Sequence record: MT862763.1
DNA from: Escherichia phage vB_EcoP-U8
Length of the DNA: 40,294 nucleotides
Strand: one strand, 5' to 3'
Under the pieces are notes generated by a model. It did no database searches. It saw only the letters and a program-made list of their open reading frames with translations, and was not told where the DNA came from. A program made the position numbers and the translations under genes. Positions 8,075-38,336 of this stretch are shown one piece after another (the first letter of the stretch is position 1; each line of letters starts with the position of its first letter).

Positions 8075-9838
8075 CTAGTGGAACGTAACGTAGTGCCCTA
8101 GTCCAAGCTCGTCGTCCGTATCGTGAGTTACCCGGACCCCATTGTCCCAGAACTCAGTGTGGATGGACTCGAAGCCTTTCCGTGGGTTCTCCATCTGTTC
8201 CTCCAGCCACTCCTCAGTGACTTCACGTTCTCCTTTGTTGGCATCCTTAGCCATAGACTCAACGAAGAACTGTACACCGATAGCCAGCGCATCAAGTCGG
8301 TCATCGTGTGCCAAGGCCCCACGTTCACGAGAGATACGGGTCATCTGATAGAAGAGAGAGTAGATAGGGTTACGAACACCATCCTTGTCAGAGGCTGTCT
8401 GGTAGTCTTGGACGATAGCAGCAGCGTTGACGATAAGTCGGTGAGACCCCATGATAGGCTCCAGAACGTCACAGATGCGGAGTTCTTTCTGACCCTTACT
8501 CTTCACTTCAGTTACAGCCGCAGGATGGATACGGGCCGCTACAGGCTTGAATAACTCAAGGTACATACCATCACCGAAGTTACCCTCAATGACGTATTCG
8601 TTGACCTTCCACTTACGACCAATCTTAGCCAAGGCTTCCAGAGTAGAGTCTTCATAACCACCACGCATACCGCCTACTTCCATAGCGAAGATGTAGCCGT
8701 TGAGCTGATACAGTACCGCATAGCCAGTTTCATCCTTACCACGACCACTAGGGTCAATGACCAGAATCTTCTGGGTGTACGAGCTGAAGGCAGAACCTAC
8801 AGTCTGATACGTGTGGTATGAGTCACCCATGAGTCCAACGTTAGGGACGTCCTCACGCTTGTTCTGAGGGTTAGGCAACCATTGGTAGACCATTGGACTA
8901 GACGCTGGGTCCAAGTCCGCTACGATAAGGTCACGGAGCTTCAGAGGGTACTTCTCAGCATCACTCAGGTTCGGGTTAAGCATGAACTGTAGAGCGAAGC
9001 CAGCTTTACCATAGGACAGCTCACGTTCCTTCAGGTCCGTATCATCGAATCGTACCTCATCGGTCGGACGCCAGTAGAAGGACTCAGGGTCCTCTTCCAG
9101 TTCTGCCTGAAGCATAGGAGCCAGACGGTCGCCGTAAGACTGCCAGTCCTTCCTGTCGCGTGGGTAACGAGCAGGCCAGATAGTAGTGGTGTACCCACGA
9201 CCTTCCAACTCACGGTACAGGGTCATCTCGTTCTGAGGAGTACCCAGATAAATGATTGTGCCTCCCGGCTTCAGGATAGCGTCGAACTCTTTCACAAGCT
9301 CTGACAGACGGTCTCGTGCAGCCTGAGTCGCAGAGTTATTAGGAACCTCCACGTCATCTGCAATCAGGATGTCAGCACGACTACCAGTCAACTGACCAGT
9401 GATACCAACAGACTTAACCGAAGGTGAGTGGTCTGGCTTGGCTGGCCCAACGTCGAAGCTAATAACAGCATCTCGCTGTCCCTGCTTAGGTTTGAGTTCC
9501 TGAAGCTGAGGCATGAGGTCGATGATTCGCTTGATGAATATGGAGTTAGCATCGGCTCGTTCCTTTGAGGCCGACACAATCATGAACTTCAAGTCTGGGT
9601 TGTTCCATAGTTTCCAGACCACGAATGCACACGTAATGAATGACTTCCCGATACCACGGAACGCCTGAAGGATGAAACGCCTGTTGTCCCCAGCCGATAG
9701 TTTCTTCGCCATGTCAATCTGACAGCGAGTCGGGACTGGGAGCGACAGAGCTTTCCACAGGACGAACAGGAAGAACACGAAGTCGGCCTTCATACGTGCC
9801 GTCATAAGCGCCTGACGCGCCGCTAAGTCTTGACTCAA
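8075..9838 (-). CDS. Terminase large subunit (T7 gp19-like DNA maturase B)
   Basis: 587 aa; collinear with T7 gp19 as recalled ([18 protein letters not shown] Walker A region, [19 protein letters not shown]). Confidence 0.95.
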
Positions 9839-10302: not shown

Positions 10303-10674
10303 TCAGAATCGACGTACAAGCGTCTTCTCTAGGTATGAAACAGCCCGCTGGACACTAGATGTAGTATCTCCCAGTGCGCCAATTGCTGCATTGCACTTGC
10401 GGCATAAAACCCCTCTAATCACCCCAGTGGAATGACAGTGGTCAATACACGCAGAGTCTGTATCTCCTTTCTTCCCACCTACTTTAAGCGGAGTCTTGCA
10501 AATCTCGCATGAGCTTCCCACCGAGTGCATCAGGTCCTCGAACTGTTCAAGCGTGAGACCATATAGGCTCTTTATCTGCGAAATGCGCTTAGTCCTCTTT
10601 CTTCGTTCCTCCCGTTCCTCTCGTAATTTACGAGCAGCTTGAACGTTAGCCTTTATAACATCTTCCGATACCAT
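10303..10674 (-). CDS. Endonuclease VII-family protein (putative homing endonuclease) between gene 18 and 18.5
   Basis: CEICK...IDHCHSTGVIRGVLCRKCN, the Cys/His pattern of T4 endo VII-type proteins; SD AGGAGGTGGT before ATG. Confidence 0.75.
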   Translation of the reverse strand: MVSEDVIKANVQAARKLREEREERRKRTKRISQIKSLYGLTLEQFEDLMHSVGSSCEICKTPLKVGGKKGDTDSACIDHCHSTGVIRGVLCRKCNAAIGALGDTTSSVQRAVSYLEKTLVRRF

Positions 10675-17100: not shown

Positions 17101-18060
17101 GTATGTCAGAGGGTCCACGCCAGCACCAATAACACCAGCAGCTAACTGAGCGCCAGTCCCAGCCTTGGCCTTCTCTTGGTCCAACTTCTGGTTCTCAATC
17201 GCCAAGTTAATAAGCTCAGTCAGGTTCTGAGGGGAGCCACCAGTAATGACTCCGTAATACTGAGGCAGAACCCCAGCGTTACGAATCTGGTCCAGCTCCT
17301 CACGAGACCACTTATGGTTGTTCCATCGCGTCGGGTTGAACACATCGCCAATGACATCCAGTGAGTCCTCAGTCTGACCAGCTCTGATAGCCACGCCGAC
17401 CATAGAGTTCTTCACTTCAGCTTCTGTAGCCGCACCGAAACCGAACCACGTAGAGCGATCCTCTCGTTCCTGCATGGTCTCGCCAGTAGCCTTATAGAAC
17501 ATCTCACCGAACGATTCGTTGGGAGCTTCAGGTGCTTGACCCTCAATGTTCATACCAGCAGCGGTCGGAAGGTTCTCACCCAGAGCTACTTTAGGTTTAT
17601 CCTTGAGTCCTTCCGTGAGTGCGTCAAATACGTTAGCGCTTACTGGTGGAGTCTTTGGGCTAATGCCATTGAGTGCTCGTGCGACTCCCTTCTGATAGAC
17701 TTCAGGGTCGTACCGGGAGCCTGTCTCATGGAAGCTGATAGCTTGAGCCAGAGAAGACAGGGTGTCAGGGTCCGATAGGTCGAGACTCTGGGTCGCCGGG
17801 ATGCCCGTAGCCGAAGCCACTGACTGAATGTACGCCTGAGTGTCGTTCTCGTTCGGAGGTGCCCAACGGTTGATAATCTTCTCGATAGAGTCATAACCTT
17901 GGCGACCGTAGCTTTGAAGGTTTTTAGCTAAGGCTCGGACCCCAGATTCAGGACTATCGAAGATAACGAACGCACCATCATCACCTATAGCACCTTCCCA
18001 TTGGTCTTTGGACTTACGGAGGTTCCCGGGGTTTGAATTCCTTACTCCACGTGTCGCCAT
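14173..18060 (-). CDS. Internal virion protein D (gp16-like) with non-canonical N-terminal domain
   Basis: 1295 aa; long collinear match to T7 gp16 from about residue 250 onward (ENPAMFG, GTYVPHVY, AYNRRVNGDIAIMG); N-terminal ~120 aa does not match the T7 transglycosylase motif. Confidence 0.9.
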   Translation of the reverse strand: MATRGVRNSNPGNLRKSKDQWEGAIGDDGAFVIFDSPESGVRALAKNLQSYGRQGYDSIEKIINRWAPPNENDTQAYIQSVASATGIPATQSLDLSDPDTLSSLAQAISFHETGSRYDPEVYQKGVARALNGISPKTPPVSANVFDALTEGLKDKPKVALGENLPTAAGMNIEGQAPEAPNESFGEMFYKATGETMQEREDRSTWFGFGAATEAEVKNSMVGVAIRAGQTEDSLDVIGDVFNPTRWNNHKWSREELDQIRNAGVLPQYYGVITGGSPQNLTELINLAIENQKLDQEKAKAGTGAQLAAGVIGAGVDPLTYVPIAGQVGKGAKLVNKMFTVAAQSGALAGVSEMARTSVAGGDAHVAEAILGGALFGGGMTAIADGLGRALGRNTNEFAGPATRLEARETARNVDGQDLSRLPIQEGEQTFSHQGVKFADVPNEPGSVRLEDGSILIGENPLNPKTRQVFDEVIEPERAAAGVNLGGLTEIGLKLLRSENPEIRGVAADLVRSPTGMQSGASGKIGTTASDVFERLRSVDHRFYNDIDDAVTEALKDPYFQTAFWRDSGAFRQDIYQRVSMAIEDGSGNLKAELTPGELKVYDLLKNQFDAKREMMENPAMFGRPDAQSIFPGSRFKGTYVPHVYSKQMKELYIKELGSPEALQEAIKKSWLTSYASRPEVKKRVDEALLEADPTLTPEGLAAAVDKYANDKAYGISHTEQFERSSVMEENINGLVGLENNSFLEARNLFDSDMSIVLPNGQTFSVNNLREWDMDKIVPAYNRRVNGDIAIMAGTGKTTKDMKDLVETMMNKAGDDGKLKGEVSTLRDTLKILTGRARRDGADDAAFATVMRTMTDLSFFAKNAYMGVQNLTEIGGMLARGNVRALLHGVPMFRDLAFRNKKVGASEIKDLHNVIFGKELDDSIRPSKQDVIDRLRSYSDLGSGTATALGTAKYYTGELAVRSPFTKVLNGTTNYLLDAGRQGFLSDIVEHSLTGSKRKFDDRWLKTAGISDEQWKGIKSLIRESVTRGPDGKYTIKDKKAFSQDPRAMDLWRMGDTIADETLLRPHKLSNMDAKAYGPLAKTVLQFKNFVIKSINGRTMRTFYNATKNNRAIDAALSTVMSMGLAGIYYMAQAHVKAYAMQDGRDRDYLKQALDPTMIGYAALSRSSHLGGPLGVANILGGIAGYEDTKMLRSSILPRSPTEKPERAIAYGAATSDPVMNVVGNFLEQVPAFGYAANVGASAYNLAGYLKADTRVNERDYMTGMYNTFRELVPNDPITQKLLLGTFEEQGIHIKD

Positions 18061-18491
18061 GTCTTTCTCCTCAAGATATTTCTAATAGAAACCGTACTCA
18101 CTCCATAGCGTTCAGCCAAGAGTGAAACCTTTAGGTCGCTGGACCTTATATCACGCACACTTTCCTCAGTGAGCTTAGACGAGCCTACGAAGCATCCTAA
18201 CGCTTGGCGACCTCTAGTCACCTTATCCTTTATGTTATCAGCTTGGGTGCCAACTTCAAGGTGGCTTGGGTCTATACAGGACGGGTTGTCGCACTTATGG
18301 CGAACAACGTACCCATCCGGTATAGGACCGTTAGCAAGCTCGTAAGCAAGTCTATGCGCTCTGTATTTGACCCTGTTGACCATTATCCTTCCATATCCTT
18401 CTCCGTCTAAGTGGCCTGTAAATCGGATACAGCCAGACTCTTCAGCTACTGACAGTTCTGCCAGTCTCTCACTGGCTGTCCCGTTCTTCAT
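18042..18491 (-). CDS. HNH homing endonuclease-like protein between gene 15 and 16
   Basis: GYVVRHKCDNPSCIDPSHLEVGTQADN HNH motif; 149 aa; not present at this position in T7. Confidence 0.8.
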   Translation of the reverse strand: MKNGTASERLAELSVAEESGCIRFTGHLDGEGYGRIMVNRVKYRAHRLAYELANGPIPDGYVVRHKCDNPSCIDPSHLEVGTQADNIKDKVTRGRQALGCFVGSSKLTEESVRDIRSSDLKVSLLAERYGVSTVSIRNILRRKTWRHVE

Positions 18492-20787: not shown

Positions 20788-21342
20788 TTAGCTATGACCT
20801 GTAGGTGTGCCTTTAGCAGCACTAATCGGTGCGGCACCACCGGAGCTTGATGCCCCAGATATTGACTTGCCAGCAGCGTACCCTTGCATCCCGGCGTTAG
20901 CAACATTAAGTGCATGAGCTAGTGGGCTGGTCTTGATGATTTTACCTTGACCACGGATAGCAGACTTGGTGTTCTCAATGTTGGCGATACGGTTCCCGAA
21001 GATAGCCGCATAGTCACGGTTGTAGCTTTCGGTAATCCCGGCTCTCTCCTTGACTGTGTCTCCCGCGACTTGACGTTCAATCCTGTCCATAGAGTTACCT
21101 TCCAGACCGGACTCAGCTACCGCAGCTCGGACCATACCCTGATTGCGGATACCGTTTAACGTGGTCTCTGTCAGTTCAGCCATCTGCTGCTCCTTCAGGT
21201 CTCGCTCCTGCATCTTCAGGTTGGCGTCAGAGTAGTTCATCTGCTTAATCATCTCCTGAGCCTGACGGTTCTGAGCGTCGATAGCAGCACCCTCAGCCTT
21301 GGCCTGTTGGGATGCGGACATAGTGGCACCAGCTACAGACAT
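20788..21342 (-). CDS. Internal virion protein B (gp14-like)
   Basis: 184 aa; EGNSMDRIERQVAG and C-terminal AAKGTPTG match T7 gp14 as recalled. Confidence 0.85.
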   Translation of the reverse strand: MSVAGATMSASQQAKAEGAAIDAQNRQAQEMIKQMNYSDANLKMQERDLKEQQMAELTETTLNGIRNQGMVRAAVAESGLEGNSMDRIERQVAGDTVKERAGITESYNRDYAAIFGNRIANIENTKSAIRGQGKIIKTSPLAHALNVANAGMQGYAAGKSISGASSSGGAAPISAAKGTPTGHS

Positions 21343-21378
21343 AATACCTAAACCGATTGAAATTGGTTCGCAAATTTC

Positions 21379-21765
21379 CTAATCCCCCTTCCGGCTTGTA
21401 GCCAGATAGTCAGCAGCCTTACCATCGAAATCTTCGCATTTAGAGTGGTAGTTTCTACGGGTCAGCTTTAGGTTGCAGGTATGACATAGGATTCCTCGGA
21501 CTTTCCCGGAGGTGTGACAGTGGTCAACGCATACTCCTCGGCTAGTTCCTAATGTCTTGCAGATTGCGCAGACCCCGCCCTGCTCTTTTAGGATGGAATC
21601 ATATTCTATCTGCGTAATGTGATACGTCTCGTATCCCTTGTTCTTGTGGCTCCGTCCATTATGACACAGCTTACAGGCAGAGCGTACACCACACTTAGAG
21701 TCTTTCCGTGTAGAGAACGCTTCTAGTGGCTTTTCAATTTTACAGACGGTACAGACCTTAGTCAC
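21379..21765 (-). CDS. Endonuclease VII-family protein (putative homing endonuclease) between gene 13 and 14
   Basis: GGVCAICK...[19 protein letters not shown]; GTG start with SD AAGGAGG; start overlaps gp13 stop. Confidence 0.78.
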
Positions 21766-22220
21766 GTGTCCTCCTTAGAGATAGTGAATAATTGAAAACG
21801 CTCACCAGTTACAGGGCTGATAGTCCAATCATCATGGAACTTAGCCCCAAGCAACTTCAAGAATTTAATGTGAGACTTATTGCCTGACCACACGTAGTTC
21901 CAGATGGTCCCGTATTGGTCTAACATTAAGTCCCTGTACTCAGAGATACACTTTATGAACTCTCGCTTCTCTTTAGGCCCCAGCTTGTAGACCAGACCAG
22001 AAGTCAAGAACCATACGTTATCCCCTTGGTTTCCACCATAGGCAAACACTTCACCTACACCGTTCGTTAAAACCACAGATGATGGAGATAGGTGCTTAAG
22101 CAGTCTCTCTGAGAGACCCACGGTTGACCCGTAGTTTGCTTTGCATTCATTAACATCATCTGCTGAAAGATGCCACAGAAAGTAGTGGACATCTGGTTCC
22201 GTAGCCTTGCGAATATACAT
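21762..22220 (-). CDS. gp13-like protein (internal virion protein A position)
   Basis: 152 aa ORF with SD AAGGAG between gene 12 and 14; assignment by position, sequence not confidently recognised. Confidence 0.5.
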
Positions 22221-24663: not shown

Positions 24664-24891
24664 TTAAATCATACTCATTAGGACGTATCCCTCAGCGATG
24701 TCACCAACGTCAGCAATGTGGACAACCTTACGTGCTACCTGTTGTCCAGTATACCCGTTGTCCCACTCATTCAGGATAAGCCAGTCGCCAACCTTAAAGT
24801 CCCGGTCGTTAAGTCTCAGCTCTGCTGTCTTTAGACCCAGTTGTACCGGACCAAAGTGCTGGCGGTGAATCTTCAGGTTGTGACTAGCCAT
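24664..24891 (-). CDS. DUF3850/ASCH-like small protein inserted between gene 11 and 12
   Basis: 75 aa; HNLKIHRQHFGPVQLGLKTAELRLNDRDFKVGDWLIL...GYVLMSM fits the DUF3850 (PUA-like) pattern as recalled; no gene at this position in T7. Confidence 0.6.
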   Translation of the reverse strand: MASHNLKIHRQHFGPVQLGLKTAELRLNDRDFKVGDWLILNEWDNGYTGQQVARKVVHIADVGDIAEGYVLMSMI

Positions 24892-25457
24892 TAGTCCCTC
24901 CCGATGTCGGACATCATGTTGTAGCGACCAGTGTCCATCTCGTACTCCATCACCTGCTGGTAGAGTTCTGCTTCCTGCTCACGAAGGTACAGTTCAGACT
25001 CTGGGCTACCGAAGAACTTAGCGTTGAACTCACGGCTAGCCTTGGTAACGATGTAGTCACGGAATACTACAGGCATCTCAGCGAACGGTTTCATCTCCAC
25101 CAGTTCGACTGTAATTGGTCCAGTGAAGGTCGTGGACTGAGTGGACAGGTCATAGAGATAGCCCCCCATGTTGCTGTAGTAACTGGTAGCACCAGCAGTC
25201 ATGACCCGAAGGTAAGACGGCAGGAATCGAATCCTATTGTCTTGGACATCAGGTGTCAGGACAGCAGCTTCGTTGATGTTAAAGTTCCAGCCTTTAGCTT
25301 GGACCTGACGATTGACACGATGCAGGATACGTTGAGCGTTCGAGACGTCAGCGTTACCTTCGTCAAGCTGTAGGACTGCTGGTTCACCGATAGCTGCTAA
25401 CATATCGTTGATGGCATCTAAGTCATCGTTAGCATTCAGTGGAATGTATTGAGCCAT
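24891..25457 (-). CDS. Tail tubular protein A (gp11-like)
   Basis: 188 aa; matches T7 gp11 as recalled (IVTKASREFNAKFFG, MEYEMD). Confidence 0.9.
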   Translation of the reverse strand: MAQYIPLNANDDLDAINDMLAAIGEPAVLQLDEGNADVSNAQRILHRVNRQVQAKGWNFNINEAAVLTPDVQDNRIRFLPSYLRVMTAGATSYYSNMGGYLYDLSTQSTTFTGPITVELVEMKPFAEMPVVFRDYIVTKASREFNAKFFGSPESELYLREQEAELYQQVMEYEMDTGRYNMMSDIGRD

Positions 25458-32080: not shown

Positions 32081-32370
32081 TGCTTGACCTCGAATCGCAG
32101 GTTAGATACTCCGAACTGGTCATAACCAAAGTCGTCTACCAGCTCCTCCTTGATGGTCTTCTTGAGGGCAATTTCAAGGGCAGACTCAGGGCCTGACTCG
32201 ATTGCGGTTTTGACCAGAGCCAACTGAAGACCATCCAGCTTCTCACCCTCAGCGTAGGCTTTAGTCATCTCAGCCAGTTGGCGACACATGGTATCTTCTT
32301 CCTTTGAGTTAACAACCATCTTCAGATCAAAACTCACACGAATACGTTTAGTAATAGCCATTAGTGACAC
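32077..32370 (-). CDS. gp5.5-like protein (H-NS-binding protein family in T7)
   Basis: ATG at 32368-32370 with SD AAGAAGGAG; MAITKRIRVSFDL...EVKQ resembles T7 gp5.5 as recalled. Confidence 0.8.
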   Translation of the reverse strand: MSLMAITKRIRVSFDLKMVVNSKEEDTMCRQLAEMTKAYAEGEKLDGLQLALVKTAIESGPESALEIALKKTIKEELVDDFGYDQFGVSNLRFEVKQ

Positions 32371-32786
32371 TCCTTCTTAACAAGTTTGCGCTCACGGTTC
32401 GTCTTAATGACGTGTTCGCGTTTTGGAATACACTGTAGATGCTCTATGTTGCAGCACCCACGGTTCAAGCACAAATGGTCTATTTCGTAGCCATTTGGTA
32501 TAGGTCCGCGCCTCTGCTCCCACACCCATCGGTGGAACATGAAGGCGAACTTGTTGCCCTTCCTGTAGCTTCCCATGGAGTACCGGAAGTACCCATCTTG
32601 GTTCCTCTTGTGGGACACGCAGACGATACATCCGGTAGGCATGGTGTGGAAGCGTAGGGTCTGGGTTCGAGGGTCAATGACACTCTTTCCACGTTGGTCC
32701 AATCTTACCCTCCGTATCAAGTTCACACTTGAAGTTATAGAAGCGTCCGACCTCGCGCATCGCCTCTTGAGCAATACGGACGACAT
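32361..32786 (-). CDS. HNH homing endonuclease-like protein overlapping the 3' end of the DNA polymerase gene
   Basis: HRWVWEQRRGPIPNGYEIDHLCLNRGCCNIEHLQ HNH motif; ATG at 32786 has SD GGAG, overlapping pol by 113 nt in another frame; an internal Met at 32642 has no SD. Confidence 0.75.
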   Translation of the reverse strand: MSSVLLKRRCARSDASITSSVNLIRRVRLDQRGKSVIDPRTQTLRFHTMPTGCIVCVSHKRNQDGYFRYSMGSYRKGNKFAFMFHRWVWEQRRGPIPNGYEIDHLCLNRGCCNIEHLQCIPKREHVIKTNRERKLVKKECH

Positions 32787-34845
32787 CTTCTGCTATCTCC
32801 TGAGTACGGCACGCTATCTGCAATTCATCGTGAATCCAAGCCATTAGCGCAAAGTCGCCGTCCCATCCGTTACCGTAACCAGCCTCTTCAAGTTTCTTCT
32901 CAGTCAGTACCATCCAGTGCTTACAGACAACCGCACCGTCCCCCTGAAGTAGGGCGTTAAGTGCTGAGTGTGGAGACCGGATGTGAATACGACGACCATC
33001 CAGACCTTTCAGCCAGCGACGTTTCCACTTGACGATATTCTCACCGTCCACCCACTTAGAGTCTGAGATTAACGTATTACTCACAGCTTCCCTGAGGTCC
33101 TTGATGGCTGGTGTACCCTCAATGAATTTCTTCATCAGAGCTGAACCTTCCTTCTTACCACCGCCTACTATCAGTCCAATCTTAGCGGCCCCTGCACCAT
33201 ACAGGAACGCGTAGATGAACGTCTTAGCGTTGTTACGGAAAGCCTCATGGTCGTGGTTAGACTTATCGCGTTGGACGTTAGGTGCTAACCCAGCGTTTAC
33301 TGCGTTGGCCCAGTGGATGTCACCTTCTACCACAGTCTTCGCATATGCACCACCATCAAACGGAGCCGCTCTGTTCCCAAGACAACGAAGCTCAAGACCT
33401 GAGGCATCCACACCAACTTGAATCCAAGGGTCTGGCTTACCGTCCTTCTTGTTCCACGCTGCACCGAAAGCACCACGGCAAGTCTCACCATATGGAGCAC
33501 CGTTAGCCGGGACCTGAGCCATGTTTGGTGAACTATGGGTCGCACGTCCGGTTACTGCCCCGCATGGGTTTATTGAGCCGTGCATACGTCCGTCTGGACC
33601 TACAAGTTTCAACCATGCGTTCTTACCTTCAGCAGCCTGACCGATGCGCTTCTGGACGACCAGATATTCACGGACCAGCTCTACGCAAGCCTGAGCCTCT
33701 GCGTCTGGTAACTTAACGTGTTCTAACGTCTCGTCATCGACTACAGGTTTCCCGGTGTCAGTGAAGTCTACAGGCTCCCAGCCACGCTCCATCAGGACTT
33801 TCGCTAAGTGGTCTCCGCTTCCCGGATTAAACTCAACGTAAGTGATTGGCGTGAAAGGCGCTCCTTCCATCGTGTCTCGCGTATCACGCTCACAAGGTTC
33901 AAGACCTAAGCGTTGAGCTTTGTTCTTCGGCTTCTTAAAGATGCCACCGACCTTAGGATACACGACTCGCGGATACTTCGGAAGGTCCTTGCCAGTCCGT
34001 GGGTGCTTGAAGAACTCCTTGCCTCCCTTTGGTGCGTACCAGCTACCGAAAGTCGAACGCAGCTTGTCCAGCAGCTCTGCACGTTTGACGGTTAGTTCAC
34101 GATATAAGCCTTCGACCATCTCGGTGTTCATCGGATAGCCGTTACGTTCCATCTTCGCACAGGTCCACGCAGCATCATGTTCCAGACGCAACGCATAAAT
34201 CTGGTCGAAAGCGAACTGTTCAGACTGGAAGTAATACTTGTCAGTCAGGAACTTCTTGAACAACGCCAGTGTGACCACAACGTCCTGAACGTTATAGTCC
34301 AGCATCTCCTGAGACGGGAACAACCATTCGTCCCCAGCCTTATATTCGATACCTTCTGCCTTGCACTTGGCAACGTAATCGTGTTTGTACTCACCCTTCA
34401 TCTCACCGAGACGATAACCCCAAGCCTCAAGAGACTGGCGTCCCATCATCTTAGGAGGCAGACGACCAGCTTTCACCGCGCCCATGTCTGAGAACTTAAT
34501 GTTGGGATACATCAAGCGACCCAGCACCAAGGTATCAATCATCTTGTGTTTCGGGAAGTTAAAGCGTTTCCCGAAGTACAGACGCTTCAGCTTGTCAATA
34601 GCCGGGACGTCATAGTTGATACCGTTGTGGAATACCAGCATACCATCAGGTGATGCGGCAATCTCTTCCACCTTCTGCACATACTCTTTGAAGCCACCGA
34701 CGATACCGACCATCGGAGCTACCCCATACTTAAGGGTCTCATTCGACTCGGCGTTAATCAGGACCCCACAGTGAAACTGGGAGACTGTATCAAGGAGACC
34801 GTTGGTCTCGATGTCAGAACCCCAGATACTCTTAAGGTCAAACAT
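32674..34845 (-). CDS. DNA polymerase (T7 gp5-like, family A with 3'-5' exonuclease)
   Basis: Collinear with T7 gp5 as recalled; start set at MFDLKS (GGAGG SD) rather than ORF-track start 34881; ends ...KECH. Confidence 0.97.
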   Translation of the reverse strand: MFDLKSIWGSDIETNGLLDTVSQFHCGVLINAESNETLKYGVAPMVGIVGGFKEYVQKVEEIAASPDGMLVFHNGINYDVPAIDKLKRLYFGKRFNFPKHKMIDTLVLGRLMYPNIKFSDMGAVKAGRLPPKMMGRQSLEAWGYRLGEMKGEYKHDYVAKCKAEGIEYKAGDEWLFPSQEMLDYNVQDVVVTLALFKKFLTDKYYFQSEQFAFDQIYALRLEHDAAWTCAKMERNGYPMNTEMVEGLYRELTVKRAELLDKLRSTFGSWYAPKGGKEFFKHPRTGKDLPKYPRVVYPKVGGIFKKPKNKAQRLGLEPCERDTRDTMEGAPFTPITYVEFNPGSGDHLAKVLMERGWEPVDFTDTGKPVVDDETLEHVKLPDAEAQACVELVREYLVVQKRIGQAAEGKNAWLKLVGPDGRMHGSINPCGAVTGRATHSSPNMAQVPANGAPYGETCRGAFGAAWNKKDGKPDPWIQVGVDASGLELRCLGNRAAPFDGGAYAKTVVEGDIHWANAVNAGLAPNVQRDKSNHDHEAFRNNAKTFIYAFLYGAGAAKIGLIVGGGKKEGSALMKKFIEGTPAIKDLREAVSNTLISDSKWVDGENIVKWKRRWLKGLDGRRIHIRSPHSALNALLQGDGAVVCKHWMVLTEKKLEEAGYGNGWDGDFALMAWIHDELQIACRTQEIAEDVVRIAQEAMREVGRFYNFKCELDTEGKIGPTWKECH

Positions 34846-34864
34846 GGTTAATCCTCCGTTTAGT

Positions 34865-34905
34865 CTAATCATAAAGGCCACTCTATGTGAATGACCTTTA
34901 GTCTA
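34865..34905 (-). promoter_or_regulatory. Conserved leader stem-loop element, copy C (candidate RNase III site upstream of gene 5)
   Basis: CTAATCATAAAGGCCAC-N-ATGACCTTTAGTCTA immediately upstream of pol RBS. Confidence 0.4.
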
Positions 34906-37670: not shown

Positions 37671-37887
37671 CGTACACCACCAGCTCTACAGCTACGAGGT
37701 TCAGATGACGTTGGAAGCGGTTAGCATCCGTGGTGTGCATCTGGAGCAACTTATGGTTGAAGACGTGAGAGTTACTAATCTTCACGTACACTTCACCCGG
37801 CTTACCGTGAACGATAAACGCATAGCCTACCGGGATTTTATCAATGGTCAGACGCTTACGAACGACCTTAACTTCTTGAGTCATCAC
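37660..37887 (-). CDS. hypothetical protein between gene 3 and 3.5
   Basis: 75 aa ORF tightly packed between endonuclease I and amidase. Confidence 0.45.
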   Translation of the reverse strand: MMTQEVKVVRKRLTIDKIPVGYAFIVHGKPGEVYVKISNSHVFNHKLLQMHTTDANRFQRHLNLVAVELVVYDGE

Positions 37888-38336
37888 TTAACTCCTTTCT
37901 TCTTGGGGATGAGTATACCTGAAGGCAGACGTACAGTCGCCTCTCGCAGCCACTCAACCGGGATGAACTTATCGGCATACTTATAGCCGTTCTTTTCGCA
38001 CCATGCGCCATACGTGGTCGGAGACCCTTTGTATAGCTTGGAGCGTGAACTTGAGAACACGAACCGGATGTCTAACTCTGGGTGCTGTTCTCGTACCAGA
38101 AGGTGCTTCTTACGGTCATCACTATCGAAGATACCTTTGGTCTCCACGATGATACCGTTGGGAAGGATAAAATCTGGTGTGTACTTGTGGTCGGAAGCCG
38201 GAATCACATAGTTGATATAATGGCTTTCGTACTCCGCTTTGACGCCGTTCTGTTCCAGCCACTGCTGGTTCTTGGCTTCAAGTCCAGAGCGGTAGGCACC
38301 CACAGAGTGCCCCCGTTTTGCAGACCATTGGGCCAT
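37884..38336 (-). CDS. Endonuclease I (gp3-like Holliday junction resolvase)
   Basis: 150 aa; YTPDFILPNGIIVETKG, DDRKKHLLVREQHPELDIRFVFSSS match T7 gp3 as recalled. Confidence 0.95.
   Translation of the reverse strand: MAQWSAKRGHSVGAYRSGLEAKNQQWLEQNGVKAEYESHYINYVIPASDHKYTPDFILPNGIIVETKGIFDSDDRKKHLLVREQHPELDIRFVFSSSRSKLYKGSPTTYGAWCEKNGYKYADKFIPVEWLREATVRLPSGILIPKKKGVK

Follow-up and report, generated by a model that had tools for sequence, protein, structure and literature searches.

[quoted passage not shown] Among the His-Me finger nucleases, it belongs to the branch with the Endo VII motif (DHHRN). The window, by which we mean the whole 40,294-nt stretch of DNA in sequence record MT862763.1, supplies the numbering for all positions given here. 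Within it, the gene is the counterpart of 'gene 13.5' in related phages and reads on the minus strand, which the first-pass annotation of this DNA had left unstated.

All long ORFs of the window lie on the minus strand. T7-type genes were recognized by Pfam, namely gp13, gp14, the small terminase, endonuclease I (gp3) and a 5'-3' exonuclease, and a 24-kb BLAST query returned Kayfunavirus (K1F-like Studiervirinae) genomes with ~94% identity over 95% of the query, none being closer. Judged by the strand of its ORFs, these T7-type genes and its BLAST relatives, the window is a complete Kayfunavirus genome that has been permuted and reverse-complemented. The genes that frame the locus are as follows.
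20788..21375, minus strand: gp14 (internal virion protein B), read from ATT, 195 codons; PF24072, E=1.9e-41
21379..21765, minus strand: Endo VII-family (DHHRN / His-Me finger) endonuclease gene, 128 aa, GTG start, TAG stop
21762..22220, minus strand: gp13; PF11090, E=1.5e-41

The first-pass annotation had proposed that the ORF at 21379-21765 carries an endo VII-type Cys/His signature, and this was borne out by the CAICK motif in the translation, which it had quoted, by a Pfam match and by the retention of the ligands. The match to Endonuclease_7 (PF02945) reached 60.3 bits, well above the cut-off of 23.6, at E=1.7e-16, and covered profile positions 6-80 of 82, which as a profile comparison is far beyond chance. 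The ORF also matched PHROG 2633, 'endonuclease VII', with E=4.8e-26, and PHROGs gives this name to both Endo VII copies present in the genome. A search of 5.8 billion proteins yielded 143 relatives, all with PF02945, from which 49 full-length relatives were aligned. Ten residues are invariant in these 49 homologues (C66, C69, D81, H82, H84, R90, L93, C94, C97 and N98), and K3, C5, C8, C31 and C34 are at least 90% conserved, so that the Cys/His ligands, whose conservation on alignment had been suggested as a check, are all kept at one of these two levels. The conservation of C5/C8/C31/C34 and of C66/C69/C94/C97 shows that the protein has two Cys4 sites.

The gene was also said to start with GTG behind a strong Shine-Dalgarno sequence and to overlap the gp13 stop, and both features were found on the minus strand, where the endonuclease and gp13 have GTGA in common because the gp13 TGA falls inside it.
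21770..21776, minus strand (read 21776-21770): Shine-Dalgarno AAGGAGG, followed by ACAC and then by GTG (21765-21763)
21762..21765, minus strand: GTGA overlap of the endonuclease start and the gp13 stop, with the gp13 TGA at 21764-21762
The GTG start is sound, since the first residue is shared by homologues (M-x-K-x-C-x-x-C) and sister alleles carry an ATG in place of the GTG.

Comparison with relatives confirmed an insertion between gp13 and gp14, as the first-pass annotation had described it, with the correction that the gene is not simply intergenic. The closest relative by its flanks, phage 22664UKE3-2, is without the insert and lacks exactly 390 bp, its empty junction reading ...CTCTAAGGAGGACGTATGTGCGAGCCAGTAAG..., and these 390 bp amount to 130 codons that separate codon 1 of gp14 from codon 2 without a shift of frame. 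The sequence at empty sites is AAGGAGGACGT-ATG-TGY-GAR-CC, with gp13 extending 16 nt into gp14, and in carriers it is AAGGAGGAC(GT ATG or AC GTG)-ACN-AAG-...-GAT-TAG-RAA-ATT-TGC-GAR-CC. Junction alignments show that the last four codons of gp13 in empty-site phages are displaced by the insert and that AAGGAGG at 21770..21776 is the Shine-Dalgarno of gp14 in phages without it. The endonuclease gene uses this ancestral gp14 Shine-Dalgarno, and some alleles use the ancestral gp14 ATG as well.

At its other end, the gene runs into gp14 through a short element.
21373..21390, minus strand: 3' junction element AAGGGGGA-TTAGGAA-ATT, comprising a Shine-Dalgarno in the last endonuclease codons, TAG, one codon and ATT
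The ATT occupies the ancestral start-codon position of gp14, the Shine-Dalgarno AAGGGGGA lies seven nt before it, and the endonuclease TAG is in frame with gp14. ATT was present in all 13 distinct carriers or remnants examined from lineages A, A' and B, and every insert-free phage has ATG at this position, or in one case GTG. Pattern scans of IMG/VR and JGI metagenomes for carriers with a restored ATG gave only ATT, in a small sample of five loci, apart from one unrelated chance match with ATA (L045). The most conserved 20 nt (93%) across eight alleles differing by 20-45% elsewhere are GGGGATTAGGAAATTTGCGA, and in contig L035 the 3' element is unchanged even though the endonuclease frame there ends four codons short of it and leaves it non-coding. 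The gp14 frame is open from ATT, reading ICEPISIGLGIM, i.e. ICEPISIG(L/M)GIM, with the residues conserved relative to MCEPVSIGMGIM in empty-site phages, and from there gp14 has the same length, 195 codons, as in phages without the insert. We infer that gp14 starts at AUU in carriers of lineages A, A' and B. Other occupants of the slot provide for gp14 differently, with a GTG start in lineage C and an overlapping TAATG in Yersinia phage Rambo, both with a Shine-Dalgarno inside the endonuclease 3' end.

The ORF finder and other annotators start the window gp14 at ATG 21342 (184 aa), from which T7_gp14 matches only from profile position 11, and the annotated gp14 proteins of carriers begin at various downstream ATGs and count 177, 184 or 187 aa. 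Since ATT is not among the start codons that gene callers accept, the annotated gp14 of carriers in lineages A, A' and B probably lacks 8-18 residues, and the locus would thus expose a systematic annotation error. As independent proof of translation, purifying selection across the 11 codons that separate ATT from the first ATG was considered and dropped, as the same polymorphisms occur in insert-free phages (e.g. L014) and may for this reason have been imported by recombination. The fold of 21320-21440 (minus strand), which spans the 3' junction, was no different from shuffles (z = -0.98). Just upstream of the gp14 Shine-Dalgarno, at 21391-21405 on the minus strand, there is a hairpin, CUGGCU-ACA-AGCCGG, the stem of which persists through G-U/A-U changes across lineages A, A' and B, and its conservation may simply reflect coding.

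The flanks of the gene are mosaic. Identity between the window and 22664UKE3-2 is 98.3% for gp12, 98.2% for gp13, 98.6% for gp15 and 99.8% for the remainder of gp14, and falls to only ~82% over the 100 nt that directly follow the insert. Local differences between the two are confined to about 60-90 nt on each side of the gene and cluster in two stretches.
21788..21846, minus strand: upstream clustered differences from 22664UKE3-2, 6 differences
21297..21367, minus strand: downstream clustered differences from 22664UKE3-2, ~14 differences, with the window equal to carrier PSK1 here
The upstream stretch can be read as a co-conversion tract. In PSK1, HC13 and KM02, the endonuclease gene is 96-99% identical to that of the window and gp13 is 67% identical, with the change in identity coinciding exactly with the 5' end of the endonuclease gene. 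As a separate observation, gp13 occurs as two alleles of ~67% identity within genomes that are otherwise 93-97% identical (window compared with PSK1, KM02 and L034).

The locus therefore bears genomic features by which homing genes are recognized, as the gene is present or absent at one precise site among close relatives, its flanks appear co-converted and the similarity of the gene is decoupled from the similarity of the flanks. Break-induced gene conversion with short co-conversion tracts would be expected to leave such a mosaic; read from aligned genomes, the mosaic shows recombination at the slot and by itself is no proof that the endonuclease makes the break. Between the two roles that the first-pass annotation had named for the family, homing and association with packaging, the evidence favors homing. 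The mosaic flanks accord with the general finding that exchange between phages is delimited by nuclease genes (Barth et al. 2023, PMC10448857), and the locus would be a clean natural example of a selfish element creating recombination boundaries in the structural operon of therapeutic-type coliphages.

If the gene homes, the endonuclease would be made late in the structural operon from the captured gp14 ribosome-binding site. In a mixed infection, it is predicted to cut or nick the genome of a phage that has no copy of the gene, at its uninterrupted gp13/gp14 junction (about AAGGAGGACGTATG|TGCGARCC), a target that we place from the insertion point only. By analogy with Hpy99I and T4 Endo VII, cutting would proceed by the one-metal His-Me mechanism, in which H82 would activate water and D81 and N98 would hold the metal ion, and by analogy with Hpy99I the first zinc module would read the major groove. 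Recombinational repair from the carrier would then copy the gene together with roughly 100 nt on each side. The carrier would be immune since the insert splits the predicted site, and its gp14 would be translated from ATT behind the Shine-Dalgarno in the endonuclease 3' end, possibly coupled to the adjacent TAG. The change from ATG to ATT may additionally protect carriers from their own enzyme, and with ATT as an immunity determinant the recognition site would lie at the gp14 start region. The predicted target, which is the 20-bp conserved gp13/gp14 junction, would give the first biochemically defined DHHRN enzyme from a T7-like phage.

Selection on the gene was assessed from its alleles. dN/dS between the window allele and those of pO91, CY1, ST21 and Penshu1 is 0.07-0.16, which indicates that the endonuclease protein has been maintained. 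Compared with PSK1, the window allele shows five non-synonymous and no synonymous differences (S19, T47, V78, K109 and D119), of which outgroups place at least four (S19, T47, V78 and D119) on the branch of the window, K109 being also found in CY1. The window copy may thus be under relaxed constraint.

Copies in several relatives have decayed further. In ST21, a Salmonella phage, the zinc ligand Cys94 is replaced by arginine (C94R), whereas the near-identical Penshu1 allele keeps the cysteine, and the ST21 copy is probably inactive. ZG49 retains only the 3' half of the gene, fused by a 5' deletion to a truncated gp13. Internal deletions have reduced the gene to mini-ORFs of 60 codons in KM02 (204 nt lost), 49 codons in a metagenome contig (SKEL01000564.1; 237 nt lost) and 24 codons in Esher7 (312 nt lost). 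These three independent deletions are all multiples of three, for which the chance is ~1 in 27, and the start codon and the SD-TAG-ATT end are kept in each. That all three are in frame with both ends kept hints at coupling of gp14 initiation to translation of the upstream ORF. We propose tentatively, as a possibility some way short of probable, that the gene has captured the ribosome-binding site and start codon of gp14, that the AUU start of gp14 is coupled to termination of the upstream ORF at the UAG three bases before it, and that the element is consequently hard to lose. The mini-ORFs with both ends would be explained in this way since, under coupling, the element shrinks only by in-frame deletions. 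If the AUU start and the coupling are true, a selfish gene would have become entrenched by taking over the translation signals of a neighboring essential gene.

The same observations bear on an alternative that we consider unlikely, namely that a homing gene invaded the locus in the past and is now inactive in this phage, being kept since its translation and its 3' end are needed for gp14 expression. The five non-synonymous and no synonymous changes from PSK1, set against a long-term dN/dS of ~0.1, would agree with such an inactive copy, as would the dead copies of relatives (the C94R allele and the mini-ORFs) and the preservation of frame, start and SD-TAG-ATT end through three internal deletions. 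However, all invariant zinc and catalytic residues are intact in the window allele, and the five changes are conservative or at variable positions, affect no invariant residue and are not numerous enough for proof of relaxed constraint. We prefer the reading of a homing endonuclease gene that is still intact.

The distribution of the gene was surveyed with a 1.7-kb query across the locus, which matched 221 phage records. Full-length copies of the window lineage were found in 10 of the 221, and the identity to the window gene is 98-99% in PSK1, Esher2, ZCEC02 and HC13, 92% in pO91, 89% in CY1 and 78% in ST21, ST3, ST1 and Penshu1. An allele of 68% identity occupies the same slot in a metagenome contig. 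Counting any occupant, the gp13/gp14 slot is filled in ~25 of the 221 related records, and about nine in ten are without a gene there; among the IMG/VR loci fetched with gp14, the slot was empty in 22 of 24. Synteny, another check suggested at the outset, agrees in that the slot is empty in most relatives and holds the 390-bp insert in the window. The other occupants are Ro45lw in lineage B, with 38% protein identity; EcoDS1 (where the gene is named gp13.5), Hafnia phage yong1/Ca and five others in lineage C; and an Endo VII gene in Yersinia phage Rambo, a Teseptimavirus. The diverged Endo VII lineages that occupy the slot number at least four. Endo VII-family genes also hold structural-operon slots in other Studiervirinae genera, as seen in Rambo and in Klebsiella phage KN4-1, where such a gene is flanked by two genes, presumably gp11 and gp12, whose annotation goes no further than 'tail protein'. 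Two distant homologues (P0005 and P0016) lie in unrelated contexts and were uninformative.

The genome contains a second gene of the family, and the HMM search proposed as a check returned Endonuclease_7 for both ORFs.
10303..10674, minus strand: second Endo VII-family gene, 123 aa; PF02945, E=3.1e-20, 72.3 bits
This gene has its own Shine-Dalgarno and sits between gp18 and gp18.5 as a simple intergenic insertion, and its protein is without the N-terminal zinc module and the N-terminal cysteines. It is present in one of 233 related records (Ro103C3lw) and is thus rarer than the 21379..21765 gene. The first-pass annotation had called the two genes paralogous, which holds only loosely, in the sense that they belong to the same family. 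Pairwise alignment, which it had recommended, gave 36% identity over a 58-aa core only, with differing N-terminal halves, and a recent duplication was ruled out on this basis. To judge from these alignments, the two copies are family members acquired separately.

Two further nuclease genes, both HNH_3, bring the His-Me nuclease genes of this 40-kb genome to four. One encodes 149 aa at 18042-18491 on the minus strand (Pfam E=2.9e-17), between gp15 and gp16, and overlaps the gp16 start; it is another sporadic insert, since the related contig L035 has gp16 directly after gp15. The other encodes 141 aa at 32361-32786 on the minus strand (Pfam E=2.5e-18) and overlaps the 3' end of a 735-aa ORF at 32674-34881, which from its size and position is taken to be the DNA polymerase gene. 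A DUF3850/ASCH-domain ORF of 75 aa was also noted at 24664-24891 on the minus strand, between a 188-aa ORF (24891-25457) and gp12.

The number of nuclease genes and the distribution of the gp13/gp14 occupant bear on a second, quite improbable alternative, in which the nuclease benefits the phage by degrading host or competitor DNA or through marker exclusion, and the cassette spreads by ordinary homologous recombination. The authors describing Hafnia phage Ca speculate that endonuclease VII and HNH genes are weapons against the host (PMC8861465), and both the four His-Me nuclease genes and the purifying selection among alleles would be compatible with a useful enzyme. Nevertheless, about nine in ten close relatives do without the gene, and its decay has recurred in a manner that speaks against a strong benefit. 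Tightly local donor tracts around a fixed insertion point are, moreover, the signature of site-directed gene conversion, and competitor exclusion and homing are not mutually exclusive.

With homing retained as the preferred function, the enzyme can be placed within its family. The protein divides into two modules.
21631..21765, minus strand: N-terminal zinc module, codons 1-45, with C5, C8, C31 and C34; aligns to the first b4a2 zinc repeat of Hpy99I
21403..21630, minus strand: Endo VII catalytic core (beta-beta-alpha-Me), codons 46-121, corresponding to Pfam match residues 46-121
By analogy with Hpy99I, we infer that the first of these is the sequence-reading domain. Sequence alignment assigns the zinc ligands of the catalytic core to C66, C69, C94 and C97 and the predicted active-site residues to D81, H82, H84, R90 and N98. 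The core aligns to C23/C26/D40/H41/H43/R54/C58/C61/N62 of T4 Endo VII, and D81/H82/N98 correspond to D148/H149/N165 of Hpy99I with an offset of 67 residues. A sequence search of the PDB ranked Hpy99I first (query 3-107 to Hpy99I 76-184) and T4 Endo VII second (query 58-122 to T4 15-86). The AF2 model of the 128-aa protein has a mean pLDDT of 85, and its N-terminal module forms four strands and a helix, with pLDDT >90 in residues 1-30. A Foldseek search with this model again returned Hpy99I first (probability 1.0) and T4 Endo VII next, with TM-scores of 0.31-0.34; such low scores are expected for two small, flexibly linked modules, and the fold evidence rests mainly on sequence.

The DHHRN family of Endo VII-motif homing enzymes was named by Fang et al. 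2018 (PMC6083498), with the hallmark residues D, H, H, R and N and a zinc site made up of CX2-4C on their N-terminal side and CX2C on their C-terminal side. The window protein has all of these, as D81/H82/H84/R90/N98 with C66/C69 and C94/C97. The same authors separate a 'resolvase clade', in which the motif is N-terminal and similarity to gp49 extends over the whole length, from an 'endonuclease clade', in which the motif is C-terminal and which includes F-CphI, Hpy99I, intron-encoded enzymes and podovirus proteins from phages that also encode endonuclease I (PMC6083498). By the same definitions, the window protein has its motif at residues 66-98 of 128, and the genome encodes endonuclease I.
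37884..38336, minus strand like all long ORFs: endonuclease I, the T7-type resolvase; PF05367, E=2.8e-81
8075..9838: large terminase gene, ~11.5 kb from the endonuclease gene in the gp13/gp14 slot
In all its sequence features, the ORF fits the endonuclease clade and not a T4-type resolvase. Although the Pfam family is named after the T4 recombination endonuclease VII, and although HNH proteins next to terminase genes help cos cleavage in HK97-like phages (PMC8861465), it is extremely improbable that the protein debranches DNA before packaging like T4 gp49 or acts as a terminase-associated HNH factor like HK97 gp74, given that the T4 match covers only residues 15-86 of 157 with no full-length gp49 similarity, that the query ends six residues later so that the T4 C-terminal domain is absent, that the motif is C-terminal, that the canonical T7 resolvase is present, and that this sporadic gene lies between gp13 and gp14, far from the terminase gene, and is missing in most relatives.

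Among characterized enzymes, T4 endonuclease VII (gp49; PDB 1e7d, 1en7, 2qnc) has the same Pfam family, zinc site and active-site residues as the window protein. However, the T4 motif is N-terminal and is followed by ~70 more residues that are absent here, and the T4 enzyme is a structure-specific resolvase, a role that in the window phage belongs to endonuclease I. Hpy99I is the best solved relative both by sequence and by fold. It consists of a beta-barrel and two b4a2 zinc repeats (Sokolowska et al. 2009, PMC2699513; PDB 3fc3), the second of which holds the metal through D148 and N165 with H149 as general base, while the first contacts the major groove (PMC2699513). The query spans both zinc repeats (Hpy99I residues 76-184), but the window protein is without the N-terminal beta-barrel and has no residues upstream of the first repeat. 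Hpy99I-like Helicobacter genes adjoin a methylase gene (Fang et al., PMC6083498), whereas the window gene has no adjacent methyltransferase, its neighbors being gp13 and gp14, which together with the missing barrel does not fit a restriction enzyme of the Hpy99I kind. F-CphI and other DHHRN enzymes resemble the window protein in the CX2C ... DHxH ... R ... CX2C-N motif in the C-terminal half of a small phage protein, in a phage that has another resolvase, and in a predicted homing role. Unlike F-CphI, with which it was compared by published criteria, the window gene is free-standing, lies in a T7-like podovirus and encodes an N-terminal Cys4 zinc module.

The T4 seg and mob enzymes usually cut away from their own insertion point. 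In the window, by comparison, the in-frame insert splits the conserved start region, and immunity would most simply arise by disruption of the site. The free-standing homing genes of T4-like phages and ICP1 (seg and mob; PMC10448857) are otherwise alike in being small nuclease genes that sit beside essential genes, occur sporadically and lie at an exchange boundary, although they belong to other nuclease families (GIY-YIG, HNH and T5orf172).

The nearest counterparts are the Kayfunavirus genes annotated 'endonuclease VII' (PSK1, Penshu1, Ro45lw and Hafnia yong1/Ca) and gene 13.5 of EcoDS1, which occupy the same slot and belong to the same family. A literature search for functional studies of gp13.5 or of Kayfunavirus endonuclease VII brought up only mentions at the level of annotation, and the searched literature contained no cleavage or homing experiment on the window gene or its near relatives. 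The gene alone matters little, as one more uncharacterized member of a described homing endonuclease family, and the capture of a start codon together with the ATT start is a modest new observation. The alleles of EcoDS1 and yong1 (lineage C) and of Ro45lw (lineage B) are strongly diverged from that of the window, and gp14 in lineage C begins with GTG, not ATT. In contrast, the PSK1 gene, with 98.7% identity in DNA, already bears the annotation 'endonuclease VII'. By these comparisons the window gene is a further member of the described DHHRN/Endo VII-motif family, near-identical genes of which have been deposited as 'endonuclease VII' or gp13.5.
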